64,000 bases of DNA from Escherichia coli (lineage in GTDB: Bacteria > Pseudomonadota > Gammaproteobacteria > Enterobacterales > Enterobacteriaceae): the NCBI RefSeq assembly GCF_003334815.1, contig NZ_QOWO01000016.1; one strand, 5' to 3'. The notes beneath the pieces were generated by a model. That model worked only from the letters and a program-made list of their open reading frames with translations, was not told where the DNA came from and ran no database searches. The position numbers and the translations under genes are program-made. This document shows, one piece after another, positions 51,105-55,935 of the stretch (position 1 is its first letter; each line of letters begins with the position of its first letter).

Positions 51105-52042
51105 TTATGTTTGATAAAGAGGTTAACTTAGGAGACAACTCAAACGTAGTAAAAACAGAAGGGAATAACAACACAACAATAATAAATAATTTTGATGAGA
51201 AGTTTATAGGTCACGTTGTAAGATCCATGCTTTATGAAAGTATGCCTTCCTTTCAAGAAGAAGCTAGAAAAAAGATAATTGCGTCAACTGATGAATACAT
51301 TAGAGAGCTAATATCTGAGTTAGTAATTCAAAAAACAGATGCAGATACATTAAACCAAAAACTATCAACGCCTGACGTTCAATACTCTCTTTTTGAATCA
51401 GCTAAATGTTTTGCAAAAAATCCAGAAAGAACAGCAAAATCAACTCTGTTAAATTTAGTTGTAAAAAAAATAAATGAATTGGATGGAGATCATGAAGAGC
51501 TTTCCTCTATCGATCTGGCAATAAACGTCGCTACAAAACTTAGCGTAAAGCAAATAAGGTATATATCTTTAATATACTATATTAAAGATATTGTAAAAAT
51601 ATCACAAGATAGTGCCGGCGCTTATTGCATAATAGATCCTTCAAAAGATACAACAGAAGAAGTTGACGATTTCTTTTTATTCCCAAATGATATAAAAAGG
51701 AACAAGCAGGATGTTTATGATCTTTATATCGATCTATATAACAATCAAATGGATGTTGTATTTAAAGATGAAGAGATTGGCCCAGTTGATTATAGTATGC
51801 TTATAGCATTGGGTTGTATCATTCAACCTGCATTCCCTCAGCGAACATTTGTACAAAATGTAAAGAAAAGAACAGGATTAGATTTAAACGACAGCGAACA
51901 AAAATTAAAGCTATCGACATTCATTGAGAAAATAGAAAAAGCTATAGAGATAGATTCTGTCGATTATATAGTATTAACTACGGTTGGTAGACAAATAGCT
52001 AACGCCTATATATCAACAAGAATGAGATTAGTTAACTTATAA
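51101..52042 (+). CDS. Unknown 313 aa protein (second gene of AT-rich cargo operon; candidate defence/exclusion effector)
   Basis: Translationally coupled to the upstream small gene; N-terminus repeats the GDNSNVV...NNN motif; very AT-rich; no motif I recognise. Confidence 0.5.
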   Translation: MIMFDKEVNLGDNSNVVKTEGNNNTTIINNFDEKFIGHVVRSMLYESMPSFQEEARKKIIASTDEYIRELISELVIQKTDADTLNQKLSTPDVQYSLFESAKCFAKNPERTAKSTLLNLVVKKINELDGDHEELSSIDLAINVATKLSVKQIRYISLIYYIKDIVKISQDSAGAYCIIDPSKDTTEEVDDFFLFPNDIKRNKQDVYDLYIDLYNNQMDVVFKDEEIGPVDYSMLIALGCIIQPAFPQRTFVQNVKKRTGLDLNDSEQKLKLSTFIEKIEKAIEIDSVDYIVLTTVGRQIANAYISTRMRLVNL

Positions 52043-52104: not shown

Positions 52105-52215
52105 TAAGAGTAGTGAACAAACCACTCGTCAGCAAACTCCCAAGTATCTTTCAGAGTCTCCTGAACAAAAGCCTTAGCAGAATCCTTATCTGCGGTGTAC
52201 GTAACAGGAAAATCA
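52105..52215 (-). pseudogene. DinI-like 3' fragment
   Basis: Minus-strand translation ...[30 protein letters not shown] matches the DinI C-terminus; no N-terminal part or start. Confidence 0.45.
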
Positions 52216-52445
52216 TCGCTATGGTAGCTTTGACGCTCACCCCCATACCATAAAATATCAAGAGATTACGACTCATTTCCCCATGACTCTTCACCAACCA
52301 ACAGTTCTATCAACATAAGATGTAAACTCATAAACTAAGCAAGATAAAAAAATTAACAGAATTTTGTTGATTTCATGTCTGTGGAGTGTTAACTTAAAAT
52401 GAGACCTGAAGTACTGAAGGTCTTTGACACACTGGAGAAGCAACT

Positions 52446-52805
52446 ATGTTAACGCCGTTTGGTAAGACAGTAAGAAAAATGCGCATAGACTTGGGGCTTA
52501 CGCTTAAAAGCATGGCTGAGGCTATGGGCATGACCTCGTCTTATCTTTCAGCGATCGAAACTGGTAAAAGGGCGGTCACTAAGCCCGTGCTTGATAGCAT
52601 CATTAGCTATTTTAATGCGGATGAAAAACAAAAAGAAAAGCTTATCAGTGCAGCTCGTGACTCTCAGCAGTCAGTAGAGATCAGCTTGTCAGGTAAGAAT
52701 GGCCACGCTCGTGAAGTCGCAATTGCGTTCGCTCGTAGTTTTGATGAATTAAATGAAGAAGACTTCCGTAATTTACGACAGATTTTGAATCGAAAACAGC
52801 AGTAG
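52446..52805 (+). CDS. XRE-family HTH regulator
   Basis: 119 aa with N-terminal HTH (LTLKSMAEAMGMTSSYLSAIETGKR); directly upstream of and coupled to the ImmA-like gene. Confidence 0.65.
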   Translation: MLTPFGKTVRKMRIDLGLTLKSMAEAMGMTSSYLSAIETGKRAVTKPVLDSIISYFNADEKQKEKLISAARDSQQSVEISLSGKNGHAREVAIAFARSFDELNEEDFRNLRQILNRKQQ

Positions 52806-52813
52806 GAGGCGGC

Positions 52814-53335
52814 TTGAGCGGACAAGATTATCGTGTACCTCCGCAGAATCGTGAATCAATACGTTCTATCGTCACATCTCTGCGGAGCGCATTTGGTATT
52901 ACTGGGCTTAAATTCCCTGTAATGGAGGTAATTGAGTTCGCATTGCCTCAGTTGATCCCGGATTTTGAGTTCCACATTGGTGGCATGAAAGAAATGGGAG
53001 AAACGCATGGTCTTACGTACCCACAGGAACATTTATTGATTCTGCGCGAAGACATTTACGAAGGCGCTTTGAATGGGGTAGGGCGAGATAGGATGACTGC
53101 CGCGCATGAATTGGGTCATCTTCTTATGCACAGGAACATCGCATTTGCTCGTTCTGCCCCAGGGGTAAAAATCCGCCCTTTTGAGAGTAGTGAATGGCAA
53201 GCTAAATGTTTTAGTGGTGAGTTATTAGTGCCGGCTATGCATGTCAGTATTTTAAAAGGTATGACGGCTGAGGATGTTGCTAAGGCATGCGGAGTTTCAT
53301 TAGTGGCAGCGCGTTATCAGCTAGACAGAATGTAA
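52814..53335 (+). CDS. ImmA/IrrE-family zinc metallopeptidase
   Basis: 173 aa with HEXXH motif (AAHELGHLLMH); TTG start with AGGAGG 5 nt upstream. Confidence 0.7.
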   Translation: MSGQDYRVPPQNRESIRSIVTSLRSAFGITGLKFPVMEVIEFALPQLIPDFEFHIGGMKEMGETHGLTYPQEHLLILREDIYEGALNGVGRDRMTAAHELGHLLMHRNIAFARSAPGVKIRPFESSEWQAKCFSGELLVPAMHVSILKGMTAEDVAKACGVSLVAARYQLDRM

Positions 53336-53338
53336 AAA

Positions 53339-53374
53339 CCCCTTGCTTGGCGCCAACCAGTGCAAGGGGCTTTA
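53339..53374 (+). terminator. Putative terminator after the HTH-ImmA operon
   Basis: Hairpin CCCCTTGC...GCAAGGGG followed by a short T-run. Confidence 0.4.
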
Positions 53375-53488
53375 GGTGATGAATCCAAGAGGCATCACCA
53401 CCGTGAACAGCTTCGATAGACAGCCTGAAATTAACACCTTCAGGGAAGATGTTCAAGGGAAAAATCTCTCTTGGTAAGGAGGTGTTTT

Positions 53489-53592
53489 ATGAATGGGTTT
53501 GAAATCAATTGCTTCAAAAGCGGCGCCCAAAGGGTTCCGTTGGGTTTTCTGCCGTTACCGCAAGGTGCGTGGGAAATCAAAAAAAGTCCTTG
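53489..53592 (+). CDS. Candidate small ORF (34 aa) with strong SD
   Basis: TAAGGAGGTG 7 nt before ATG; encodes MNGFEINCFKSGAQRVPLGFLPLPQGAWEIKKSP; followed by a strong terminator. Below the ORF-track cutoff; speculative. Confidence 0.25.
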
Positions 53593-53654
53593 ATGCTCAT
53601 GATTACGGGTACGAGGCGTGGGCATTTTTAGTGCGCTGCTAAGGGTTAGTATTT

Positions 53655-53679
53655 AAGGCACCTGCGGGTGCCTTTTTTG
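53655..53679 (+). terminator. Intrinsic terminator
   Basis: AGGCACC-tgcg-GGTGCCT stem followed by TTTTTT. Confidence 0.6.
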
Positions 53680-53880
53680 TATCCTCTGACCCGATTGGTG
53701 TCTTGCTGAGCCTGATAACTACCAATTTTTGTTATTACTATTCTACTATCGCTCAATCATGATTGGCGGGAGTTGAAACCGCAGGCACGTCGTATGCAAG
53801 AACGTGCTGCGGCTGGCTGGTGAACTTCCGATAGTGCGAGTATTGAATGATTTCCAGCCGTTACAGATTTTACGTGCTAA

Positions 53881-54129
53881 TTAGTGAACAAACCACTCGT
53901 CAGCAGACTCCCAGGTATCTTTCAGAGTTTCCTGAACAAAAGTTTTAGCTGAATCTTTATCGGCGGTGCGCGTAACAGAAAGGCCATCGTTGCTGGTGGC
54001 TTTTACGATCACCTCTACATCGTCATAACGCTTACTGATGCGTCGAGTTAATTCTTCCTTTAACGCATCCACAGCACCGTTTGGCATTTTAGTCATTTTC
54101 TCTTTAGCTATGCAGATCTCAATACGCAT
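53881..54129 (-). CDS. dinI: DinI-like protein (RecA coprotease modulator)
   Basis: 82 aa; [11 protein letters not shown] ... [17 protein letters not shown] resembles DinI over its whole length. Confidence 0.75.
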
Positions 54130-54348
54130 AAAAATCCCTCTACACTGTGTTTGTATACAGTGTTATTTTTAACTGTATAAATAAACAGTGTCAATGGAAC
54201 AAAGATTGCTGCATGTACAAATGTTCTTTGGCTACAAATACACCTACTGATCATGTTCTGCTATGCTCTGATACCTCCAAAATGTACAATCAGCGGCATG
54301 AATTTTTCTTTGTACATATGATTGTACATAATTAAAGAGACAACAATT

Positions 54349-55935
54349 ATGACAAGCCTTTTGGCCGCAGAGGTAGCGAAAAGAAGAACCTTTGCAATTA
54401 TTTCTCACCCGGACGCCGGTAAAACTACCATCACCGAGAAGGTGCTGCTGTTCGGACAGGCCATTCAGACCGCCGGTACAGTAAAAGGCCGTGGCTCTAA
54501 CCAGCACGCTAAGTCGGACTGGATGGAGATGGAAAAGCAGCGTGGGATCTCCATTACCACGTCTGTGATGCAGTTTCCGTATCACGACTGCCTGGTTAAC
54601 CTGCTCGACACCCCGGGGCACGAAGACTTCTCGGAAGATACCTATCGTACCCTGACGGCGGTGGACTGCTGCCTGATGGTTATCGACGCTGCAAAAGGTG
54701 TTGAAGATCGTACCCGCAAGCTGATGGAAGTTACCCGTCTGCGCGACACGCCGATCCTCACCTTTATGAACAAACTTGACCGTGATATCCGCGACCCGAT
54801 GGAGCTGCTCGATGAAGTTGAGAACGAGCTGAAAATCGGCTGTGCACCGATCACCTGGCCGATTGGCTGCGGCAAGCTGTTTAAAGGCGTTTACCACCTT
54901 TATAAAGATGAAACCTATCTCTATCAGAGCGGTAAAGGCCACACCATTCAGGAAGTCCGCATTGTTAAAGGGCTGAATAACCCGGATCTCGACGCTGCGG
55001 TTGGTGAAGATCTGGCGCAGCAGCTGCGTGATGAACTGGAGCTGGTGAAAGGCGCGTCTAACGAGTTCGACAAAGAATTGTTCCTTGCGGGCGAAATCAC
55101 TCCGGTATTCTTCGGTACTGCGCTGGGTAACTTCGGCGTTGATCATATGCTGGATGGCCTGGTGGAGTGGGCACCTGCGCCGATGCCGCGTCAGACTGAT
55201 ACCCGTACTGTAGAAGCGAGCGAAGACAAATTTACCGGCTTCGTATTTAAAATTCAGGCCAACATGGACCCGAAACACCGTGACCGCGTGGCGTTTATGC
55301 GCGTGGTATCCGGTAAATATGAAAAAGGCATGAAGCTGCGCCAGGTGCGCACTGCGAAAGATGTGGTGATCTCCGACGCGCTGACCTTTATGGCGGGCGA
55401 CCGTTCGCACGTTGAAGAAGCGTATCCGGGCGATATCCTCGGCCTGCATAACCACGGCACTATTCAGATCGGCGACACCTTTACCCAGGGTGAGATGATG
55501 AAGTTCACTGGTATTCCGAACTTCGCGCCGGAACTGTTCCGTCGTATCCGCCTGAAAGATCCGCTGAAGCAAAAACAGCTGCTCAAAGGGCTGGTACAGC
55601 TTTCCGAAGAGGGCGCGGTGCAGGTGTTCCGTCCGATCTCCAACAACGACCTGATCGTTGGTGCAGTTGGTGTGCTGCAGTTTGATGTGGTGGTATCGCG
55701 CCTGAAGAGCGAATACAACGTTGAAGCAGTGTATGAGTCAGTCAACGTTGCCACTGCCCGCTGGGTAGAATGTGCGGACGCGAAGAAATTCGAAGAGTTC
55801 AAGCGTAAGAACGAAAGCCAACTGGCGCTTGATGGCGGCGATAACCTCGCTTACATCGCTACCAGCATGGTAAACCTGCGCCTGGCGCAGGAACGTTATC
55901 CGGACGTTCAGTTCCACCAGACCCGCGAGCATTAA
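54349..55935 (+). CDS. prfC: Peptide chain release factor 3 (with phage-derived 5' end)
   Basis: 529 aa translational GTPase ([13 protein letters not shown]1 motif); first ~17 codons differ from the attL remnant; att core lies within codons 20-24. Confidence 0.9.

Follow-up and report, generated by a model that had tools for sequence, protein, structure and literature searches.

In this study, a mobile module at one end of a prophage was investigated in a 64,000-nucleotide stretch of Escherichia coli DNA (contig NZ_QOWO01000016.1 of assembly GCF_003334815.1; hereafter the window). The module carries, all in one orientation, an XRE-type helix-turn-helix (HTH) repressor gene, an ImmA-type peptidase gene, an RNA leader, a gene for a basic protein of 49 amino acids (aa) and a terminator (Table 1). 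It is a self-contained accessory cargo of temperate phages of Proteobacteria. The gene pair itself is ordinary, and the interest lies in the conserved, uncharacterised 49-aa protein and its covariation-supported leader, which we tentatively regard as the dedicated output of a repressor-cleavage switch. Pairs of HTH and ImmA genes are common and are usually dismissed as generic regulators; here one such pair has a minimal, highly conserved output, and the module is thereby a compact system for asking what these switches sense and release. No prior description of the HTH/ImmA/49-aa triad, of the small protein or of the leader was found in the literature searched.

The small protein and its structured leader

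An earlier note on this DNA had proposed that a 34-aa open reading frame (ORF; 53489-53592) with a Shine–Dalgarno (SD) sequence and its own terminator follows the gene pair, and that it could be a small effector or toxin, or non-coding. The SD sequence and the terminator were confirmed, and the effector or toxin idea is still the leading reading, although it now applies to another ORF, the 49-aa frame at 53493 (+1 frame), which stands behind a leader that the note had not seen. Against the 89% identical copy of the module in locus L002, 13 of the 16 differences fall at codon position 3 of the 49-aa frame and two amino acids are changed, a pattern that also contradicts a non-coding region. The 34-aa frame shows 8 amino-acid changes in its 34 codons in the same comparison, and the equivalent frame contains internal stops in 65 of 99 homologous loci; on these two grounds it was rejected as the gene. 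The 49-aa ORF is annotated by PGAP in strain IPCEC31 (L004), and synonymous sites are unconstrained (13 of 50 third positions differ between the E. coli variants). Judged from these substitutions, the small gene is real and under purifying selection.

The start codon of the 34-aa ORF, an out-of-frame ATG, is better spaced from the SD than the true start. Of 58 unique leaders, 42 have such an ATG in the 12 nucleotides (nt) before the in-frame start, compared with about 9% expected. It is located 2, 4 or 7 nt (range 2-7) ahead of the true start, the extended SD reaching up to UAAGGAGGUGA, and in loci L075 and L077 a mini-ORF of 4 codons starts from it and overlaps the true start. This ATG may serve as a decoy start or a structural element, or have another role, and the 34-aa frame is possibly translated as an unconserved decoy peptide. 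That the downstream element is the 34-aa ORF itself, or non-coding, is hardly credible in spite of this spacing and conservation, given the amino-acid changes, the stops and the coding substitution pattern of the 49-aa frame. A strong SD combined with an out-of-frame ATG can mislead ORF calling.

The 49-aa protein is soluble, has a net charge of about +9 and no transmembrane segment, and was modelled by AlphaFold2 as mostly beta strands (pLDDT 88.5). A word-indexed search gave 28 homologues, and an exhaustive profile search of 1.84 billion cluster representatives gave 113 (50% clustering), all of them standalone proteins of 41-128 aa. Eleven columns are invariant among 52 diverse members, and the small protein is 66-73% identical where ImmA falls to about 30%. 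The exact sequence was found on 873 public contigs under the label 'hypothetical protein', and E. coli and Klebsiella each contribute >1000 contigs with close variants, which also occur in Citrobacter and Yersinia. The small protein is thus present on thousands of enterobacterial contigs, and its ImmA and HTH partners are also found in Salmonella. Among 100,044 species-representative genomes, 99 (about 0.1%) encode a relative; most hosts are Gamma- and Betaproteobacteria, some are Alphaproteobacteria, and the rest are scattered.

No Pfam match was obtained for the 49-aa query at E<=10, and 52 family members gave just weak DUF2880 matches (best 6.7e-3) and none to DUF2188 or DUF3892, which were tested as small proteins tied to HTH and peptidase operons in the literature. 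The protein had no PHROG, NCBIfam or PADLOC match, no fold neighbour in the PDB and no named relative in AFDB. The AFDB50 search returned family members alone, labelled 'uncharacterized' or 'Transposase'; the latter label is borne by AFDB entries G7ESJ1, U7GVV4, W0Q1G0 and A0A1G5UV65 and by GenBank CAM6359921.1. It looks like a propagated misannotation, because the profile search found no larger protein containing the domain.

The leader covers the 157 nt between the ImmA stop codon and the start of the small gene (53336-53492). Its part from hairpin P2 to the SD diverges by 5.0% (6/120) between two E. coli variants, compared with 21-24% in flanking non-coding DNA and 26-29% at the third codon positions of the ImmA and small genes. 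On this comparison the leader is under constraint. The window leader folds better than its shuffles (z = -3.1), and the structure, consisting of P2, P3, P4 and a weak AUCUCU/SD hairpin, was defined from the window sequence. P2 showed compensatory changes in 6/7 pairs on a plain MAFFT alignment and was independently predicted by RNAalifold.

The structure was evaluated on several alignments of leaders. On A7 (plain MAFFT, 17 leaders), 81.7% of cells were paired versus 40-55% in slid controls, and 17 compensatory pairs were counted versus 8.4 ± 1.7 in shuffles, with 0/500 shuffles reaching the observed values; stem P3 contributed compensatory changes in 7/12 pairs on this unfitted alignment. On A6 (plain MAFFT, 52 divergent leaders), 60.6% of cells were paired versus 41-49% in slid controls; the 26 compensatory pairs were no excess over the 25.8 in shuffles, and 0/500 shuffles reached the observed percentage of paired cells and covariation score. 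The third alignment, A8, was fitted to the covariance model R1 and is therefore biased towards the model structure; it gave 89.6% of cells paired versus 42-53% in slid controls, 24 compensatory pairs and a covariation score of 0.42 versus 0.15 in the shuffle control. On A8, all pairs were compensatory in P2 (7/7, 100% of cells paired) and P3 (12/12, 86%). The sole near-invariant leader columns across the 52 divergent leaders are UA and CAAG; sigma-E-like and -10-like readings of them were dropped because the supposed -35 and -7 bases are unconserved. R1 found the leader at the expected place and strand alone, in 26/53 viral loci and 23/80 genome loci, with no match elsewhere in about 1 Mb on both strands. 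Rfam gave no leader match, either in the window (E<=1) or in six divergent loci (E<=0.1).

Two further hairpins were considered at the ends of the leader. A stable hairpin corresponding to P1 follows the upstream stop codon in 53 of 56 unique relatives, with at least 5 T in the tail in just 3; the stems vary, and the loop motif GGCGCCAACC and variants of it recur. As most relatives have no U-tail, P1 was ruled out as an operon terminator and is considered part of the leader, which fits read-through. The SD hairpin is paired in 98-99% of cells, with one-sided changes only. Since its pairing is also no better than that of shuffled controls, SD masking was set aside as a demonstrable switch and is a conjecture at most. 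Alternative pairings (CAAGGGA/TCTCTTG, and GTTCA/TGAAT over the start codon) were noted by eye.

The regulatory gene pair and the mobility of the module

The coupling of an XRE-type HTH protein to a HExxH peptidase, as described in the earlier note, was borne out by Pfam matches, by the PADLOC capH, capP and RmrA models and by CapP and IrrE as the closest structures. Both genes are intact; public E. coli genomes already carry these annotations, among them 13 complete genomes of RefSeq in which the two genes are annotated alike. The HTH protein consists of the N-terminal HTH and a C-terminal domain of ~55 aa with a conserved AFARxF motif; F95 and R97 are nearly invariant among its relatives. 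It matched the PADLOC capH model at 3.6e-10 over residues 2-116, and its profile (A5) matched ClgR, DdrO and CapH 7T5U, the alignment to 7T5U being limited to the HTH part. The peptidase gene lies 8 nt after the HTH gene on the same strand and has a TTG start with GGAGG 4 nt upstream; this start is supported by the MSG N-terminus, which is the consensus of 29 relatives. H98, E99, H102, E127, Q129 and A130 are invariant in these relatives. The peptidase is a lone protease domain of ImmA size (~170 aa) with an intact zinc site (HExxH and a downstream Glu). CapP 7T5T is the best solved relative (4.6e-13), aligned over the protease core alone (residues 81-182 of 291), and the peptidase profile matched IrrE 3DTE at 1.5e-4. 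In its sequence, the pair has the architecture of switches that act by repressor cleavage.

The palindromes of ATGTT/AACAT type mentioned in the earlier note correspond to an imperfect palindrome upstream of the HTH gene, TTAACA-GAATTT-TGTTGA, which is a candidate operator. Its arms are conserved in L002 and the spacer is altered (TCAACA-AAATTC-TGTTGA); in relatives, ATCAACA-N5-8-TGTTGAT or another palindrome precedes the HTH gene by a similar distance. Among relatives, the leader contains no recurrent palindrome of HTH type, which fits a single operator and promoter, and no separate HTH operator or promoter was found within the leader; the simplest reading would be a single autoregulated operon. 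The hairpin in the 5' untranslated region of the HTH gene is altered in both arms in L002 (GACCCA...TGGGGGTC). A near-consensus LexA box (CTGTATATGCAAACAG) was found at 7904-7919 of L002 and likewise in L003, L006 and L029-L040. It is located ~240 nt upstream of the HTH gene, just beyond the shared module, in the yejO/int-side copies, occurs independently in L059 (about 3443) and is absent from the window copy. General LexA control was ruled out, as the boxes are confined to the L002-type flank and L059.

With 52300-53760 as BLAST query, positions 6-1378 were covered by 89% identical copies (52305-53677), which are carried by a group of E. coli prophages and by phage Phi06_2987; in the alignment with L002, homology begins near 52274 and stops at the module terminator. 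In lambdoid prophages, these copies occupy the opposite end, where they lie between yejO and the phage integrase gene. Around modules of 99-99.8% identity, the neighbours upstream of a dinI remnant differ by genome, and the downstream DNA differs too. The upstream neighbour is an LPO_1073-family gene with its companion (cargo A) in the window, a reverse transcriptase gene with an IS1-split SLATT gene in L001 (16912-19588), and a LEM-3-like GIY-YIG gene in L004 (7222-7518) and L005 (6745-7518). The reverse transcriptase, SLATT and GIY-YIG genes are defence-type cargo at the same hotspot in other E. coli strains. Elsewhere, the module adjoins cI-like S24 repressors (L009-L012) or occupies a non-phage chromosomal site (L016). 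Its positions comprise prophage moron and immunity-region sites beside defence genes, and the host prophages own separate LexA/cI-type repressors. As the module moves as a unit and its neighbours vary around identical copies, it is self-contained, which was one of the two options in the earlier note; the other option, control of the neighbouring cargo by the pair, was rejected.

Natural mutants were also found. In L003 (8513-8896), ImmA is cut to 127 aa by a nonsense codon and the small gene is intact; in L005 (about 9240), IS1A is inserted at codon 17 of the small gene; and in an E. coli variant (protein P0028), a frameshift joins the 34-aa frame to the 49-aa frame. Tolerance of the ImmA nonsense codon beside an intact small gene fits ImmA as a trigger and not as a neutralising antitoxin.

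The upstream partners were compared in two sets of loci: (i) 99 loci comprising the window, E. coli copies and viral or metagenome contigs; and (ii) 80 loci kept from species-representative genomes. In the first set, 80/99 loci have a HExxH ORF of 150-200 aa whose end lies 128-195 nt ahead of the small gene, and in 77 an HTH gene precedes this ORF. Exceptions in the viral set have the small gene behind an AbiLi-type ATPase (1e-70) or a TIR/PDC-S35 protein. In the second set, the HTH and ImmA genes stand upstream in 37/80 loci, a phrog_2602-like protein of ~180 aa takes their place at the same ~150-nt spacing in 16/80, and 27/80 have unrelated or unidentified neighbours, among them NrdJ, UmuC and Cas3. 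The leader, as detected with R1, lies directly upstream of the small gene in L133, L146, L152 and L163, which have no HTH/ImmA pair. Given this leader in pair-less loci and the varied partners, the leader and small gene are the invariant unit, and HTH plus ImmA is its commonest, non-obligatory partner.

In the phrog_2602-like partner (175-195 aa), the N-terminal part is alpha-helical, the linker is variable and the conserved C-terminal motif reads PVPLRxGLxVxIxGLPxDLTxxEAERIAxIIKAYA; the protein gave no Pfam match and no PDB relative. It was found in viral loci L079, L081-L082, L087-L090 and L093-L097 and in L110, L115, L120, L126 and others. In the enterobacterial group, formed by those viral loci with Atlantibacter L148 and Proteus L162, the small protein is a 54-aa variant with the insert RAKAGTPDSERR. 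Among the pair-less genomes, nrdJ or umuC precedes the small gene in L144, L146, L151 and L152 (Competibacteraceae) and in L172 and L174 (Neisseria). Together with dinI in the window, these neighbours may form a loose association with DNA-damage and nucleotide genes.

Mechanism, rival explanations and related systems

The reading that we favour, at slightly less than an even chance, is a repressor-cleavage switch that releases a small effector. The repressor would bind the palindrome over its own promoter and hold down expression of the entire operon. Upon a cue from stress or infection, the peptidase would be able to cut the repressor in its C-terminal domain, presumably near the AFARxF motif (residues 93-98), and transcription would then rise and, if the genes are co-transcribed, read through P1 into the leader, which may set the amount of small protein. 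The small protein would be the output, most likely an effector on a conserved nucleic-acid or ribosomal target with a growth-arrest, abortive-infection or toxin–antitoxin (TA)-like role, similar to a split Rosmer or ImmR/ImmA system. As an effector, it would be a new small-protein class for phage defence and TA biology; as a regulator, it would belong to a new prophage-borne RNA–protein pair.

Several observations weigh against this switch. HTH plus ImmA is missing upstream of the leader and small gene in 43/80 loci of the second set, and a strongly toxic protein is not expected without its controller. The RmrT toxin with a described mechanism depolarises membranes, whereas the 49-aa protein is soluble and basic, and no fold or domain relative hints at its function. 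The peptidase has no GAF domain and no recognisable sensor domain. A consensus scan found no sigma-70 promoter on the plus strand, and the SD pairing probability is 0.75 versus 0.71 in shuffled controls.

Part of this evidence would suit an autonomous unit, in which the leader and the 49-aa gene encode, for example, a self-regulating RNA-binding or stress protein and no toxin, and the HTH/ImmA pair is one of several acquirable upstream regulators or neighbours. The pair-less loci with an adjacent leader, the genomes without the pair, the second partner at the same spacing and a small protein far more conserved than its partners all point in this direction. We nevertheless consider it rather unlikely, as the small gene keeps a fixed order, orientation and spacing relative to ImmA in 80/99 loci, the three genes transfer jointly between prophage sites and the leader has no evident promoter of its own. 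A further reading, also doubtful, is that the leader and 49-aa protein together make up an output cassette of a kind not described before. It may be an effector under riboregulation or a small RNA-binding protein paired with an RNA of its own, and it would plug into interchangeable upstream sensors (HTH/ImmA, phrog_2602-type, AbiLi ATPase, TIR); if true, this reading would establish a new family of immunity or TA-like systems that phages carry across Proteobacteria.

The single-domain, ImmA-sized peptidase, which resembles those of ICEBs1 and phi105, also raises an accessory of lysis–lysogeny or induction, that is, a DNA-damage-sensing switch whose small protein is an antirepressor or induction factor of the resident prophage. 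The position beside dinI in the window and beside cI-like repressors in L009-L012, and the LexA box upstream of the L002-type copies and L059, would agree with it. It is improbable because the host prophages have their own LexA/cI-type repressors, the module is found at either end of unrelated prophages and at one non-phage site, and the small protein is near-invariant across Gamma-, Beta- and Alphaproteobacteria, in contrast to fast-evolving phage repressors. A CapH/CapP-like regulator of the neighbouring cargo (the 84-aa and 313-aa genes) or of dinI is suggested by capH and capP as the top named PADLOC matches and by CapP as the best solved relative. This is very improbable, since the neighbours vary around an identical module, the module is not divergent from an operon, a dinI remnant separates it from cargo A, and the peptidase, besides having no GAF domain, covers just positions 56-147 of 242 in the capP model.

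Among described systems, ImmR/ImmA of the Bacillus element ICEBs1 and phage phi105 (PMC2701414; bioRxiv 10.1101/2022.04.27.489752) likewise has an XRE repressor gene next to, and in the same orientation as, a gene for a single-domain M78 (COG2856) peptidase. The expected shared logic is inactivation of the repressor by the protease. The output of ImmR/ImmA is int/xis or transfer genes, whereas that of the module is a 49-aa protein behind a structured leader, and ImmR/ImmA is the master switch of its element, whereas the module is cargo in Proteobacteria. Control by the repressor of excision, transfer or lytic genes of its own element was not found; no downstream gene other than the 49-aa ORF is constant. 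Three-component systems built on COG2856-Xre were predicted by Makarova et al. (PMC2701414).

CapH/CapP of cyclic oligonucleotide-based antiphage signalling system (CBASS) and other immune operons shares with the module the best sequence matches and a capH-like HTH protein with a C-terminal domain (an oligomerisation domain in CapH), and the CapP core has the same His, His and Glu ligands as the module peptidase. Both CapP and IrrE include a linker and a GAF domain, and single-stranded DNA is bound by CapP within the inter-domain groove (bioRxiv 10.1101/2022.04.27.489752; PMC13228613). The peptidase, with 173 aa, cannot have the CapP architecture of peptidase, HTH-like linker and C-terminal GAF domain. 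About a third of CapPs have a cysteine-switch loop between HExxH and the Glu ligand; the module peptidase has none, as no Cys lies between H102 and E127 (LLMHRNIAFARSAPGVKIRPFESSE). CapH/CapP is located upstream of and divergent from the operon that it regulates, whereas the module pair reads in the same direction as the small gene and has a variable upstream neighbour. DdrO/IrrE of Deinococcus contains a repressor-cleaving M78 peptidase of the family of the module peptidase (PMC6868357, PMC12828697); IrrE has a GAF domain and a chromosomal regulon, and the module has nothing of that kind.

RosmerTA, also borne by phages and prophages, likewise joins an HTH and a peptidase of ImmA type to a small partner gene that varies. 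Its antitoxin RmrA is a fusion of the HTH and zinc peptidase, and its RmrT toxins vary (bioRxiv 10.1101/2022.05.11.491447; PMC10440598). RmrA hidden Markov models partially matched both module proteins (1.9e-5 and 1.9e-8), which are two separate ORFs in contrast to the single fused RmrA; the partner in the module differs in being a soluble basic beta protein, with a 155-nt structured leader in between. PD-lambda-2, which is experimentally defensive, comprises a HigB-like protein, an Xre–peptidase fusion and a P4 antitoxin-like protein (PMC9519451). It is also three-part and prophage-borne with an Xre HTH and an ImmA/IrrE peptidase, but its regulator is fused, its other components differ, and it has no structured leader or 49-aa protein. 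Type I TA systems need a hydrophobic toxin and an antisense RNA; the 49-aa protein is basic and of beta type without a transmembrane segment, and no antisense terminator or promoter was found in a scan. AAA-ATPase and ImmA domains have been described as the two promiscuous partner hubs of TA and defence systems (PMC10440598), a point in favour of the switch, given the AbiLi-type ATPase and ImmA partners of the small gene.

Setting at the prophage end

The prophage end in the window adjoins prfC (54322-55935) and osmY and bears tail-fibre genes and a Pin/Gin-type DNA invertase gene (49901-50491). As the earlier note had described, the module is located in a cargo hotspot between an AT-rich operon and dinI, and this position was confirmed. 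The hotspot extends from the invertase gene to dinI (53881-54129, minus strand) with repeats at its edges, and reads in order: invertase, repeat, cargo A, dinI remnant, HTH/ImmA module, repeat, dinI. It looks like stacked cargo insertions between invertase and dinI, as the second repeat pair is a remnant of the dinI 3' end.

Table 1. Coordinates of the module, its elements and the surrounding hotspot in the window
Feature	Position	Strand	Evidence or remark
Mobile module	about 52274-53677	+	homology with 89% identical copies at another prophage position
Candidate operator, imperfect palindrome	52353-52370		overlaps candidate -35; binding proposed
Candidate promoter TTGATT-17 nt-TAACTT, TG extended -10	52367-52395	+	read by eye; below consensus-scan threshold
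Hairpin in HTH 5' untranslated region (AGACCT...AGGTCT)	52402-52423	+	6-bp inverted repeat
XRE-family HTH repressor gene, 119 aa	52446-52805	+	Pfam HTH_31 1.5e-10, HTH_3 4.3e-10
ImmA/IrrE-family (M78) zinc metallopeptidase gene, 173 aa	52814-53335	+	Pfam Peptidase_M78 8.5e-09
Hairpin P1 (CCCCTTGC...GCAAGGGG, loop with GGCGCCAACC)	53339-53369	+	just 3' of ImmA stop codon
Hairpin P2 (GGTGATG / CATCACC)	53375-53399 (53375-81 with 53393-99)	+	compensatory changes
Stem P3	53401-53414 with 53445-58	+	encloses P4
Hairpin P4	53424-29 with 53439-44	+	loop AUUAACACC, near-invariant UA
Pyrimidine tract AUCUCU and extended SD UAAGGAGGUG	53464-53484	+	possible SD-masking hairpin
SD TAAGGAGGTG	53475-53484	+
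Out-of-frame ATG (start of 34-aa ORF)	53489-53491	+	ideal SD spacing; 4 nt before in-frame start
Conserved small gene, 49-aa basic protein MGLKSIASKAAPKGFRWVFCRYRKVRGKSKKVLDAHDYGYEAWAFLVRC	53493-53642	+	codon-position test, homologues, PGAP in L004
Intrinsic terminator, end of module	53655-53680 (stem 53655-53674)	+	8-bp GC-rich stem, then T-run
Hotspot direct repeat	50489-50590 / 53774-53875		93% identity
Cargo A gene 1, 84-aa membrane protein, AT-rich	50850-51104
Cargo A gene 2, 313-aa LPO_1073/Vpar_1526-family protein	51101-52042		NCBIfam 3.4e-24; phrog_19542
dinI 3' end remnant, 108 nt	52111-52218, matching 53882-53989		87% identity

The cargo A genes gave no PADLOC matches. On the 3' side of the module terminator, weak Rfam matches were obtained to STnc130 (53646-53758, minus strand; 30 bits versus a gathering score of 55) and CssrB (53748-53811, plus strand; 23 bits versus 76); these are probably chance matches driven mainly by terminator-like hairpins. 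In L007, a metagenomic prophage with a triad, a C4 antisense RNA, its a1/b1 targets and isrK scored above their gathering scores at 1413-1646 and adjoin a pRha/ANT antirepressor gene; the C4/isrK set there is a P1/P7-type immunity system.

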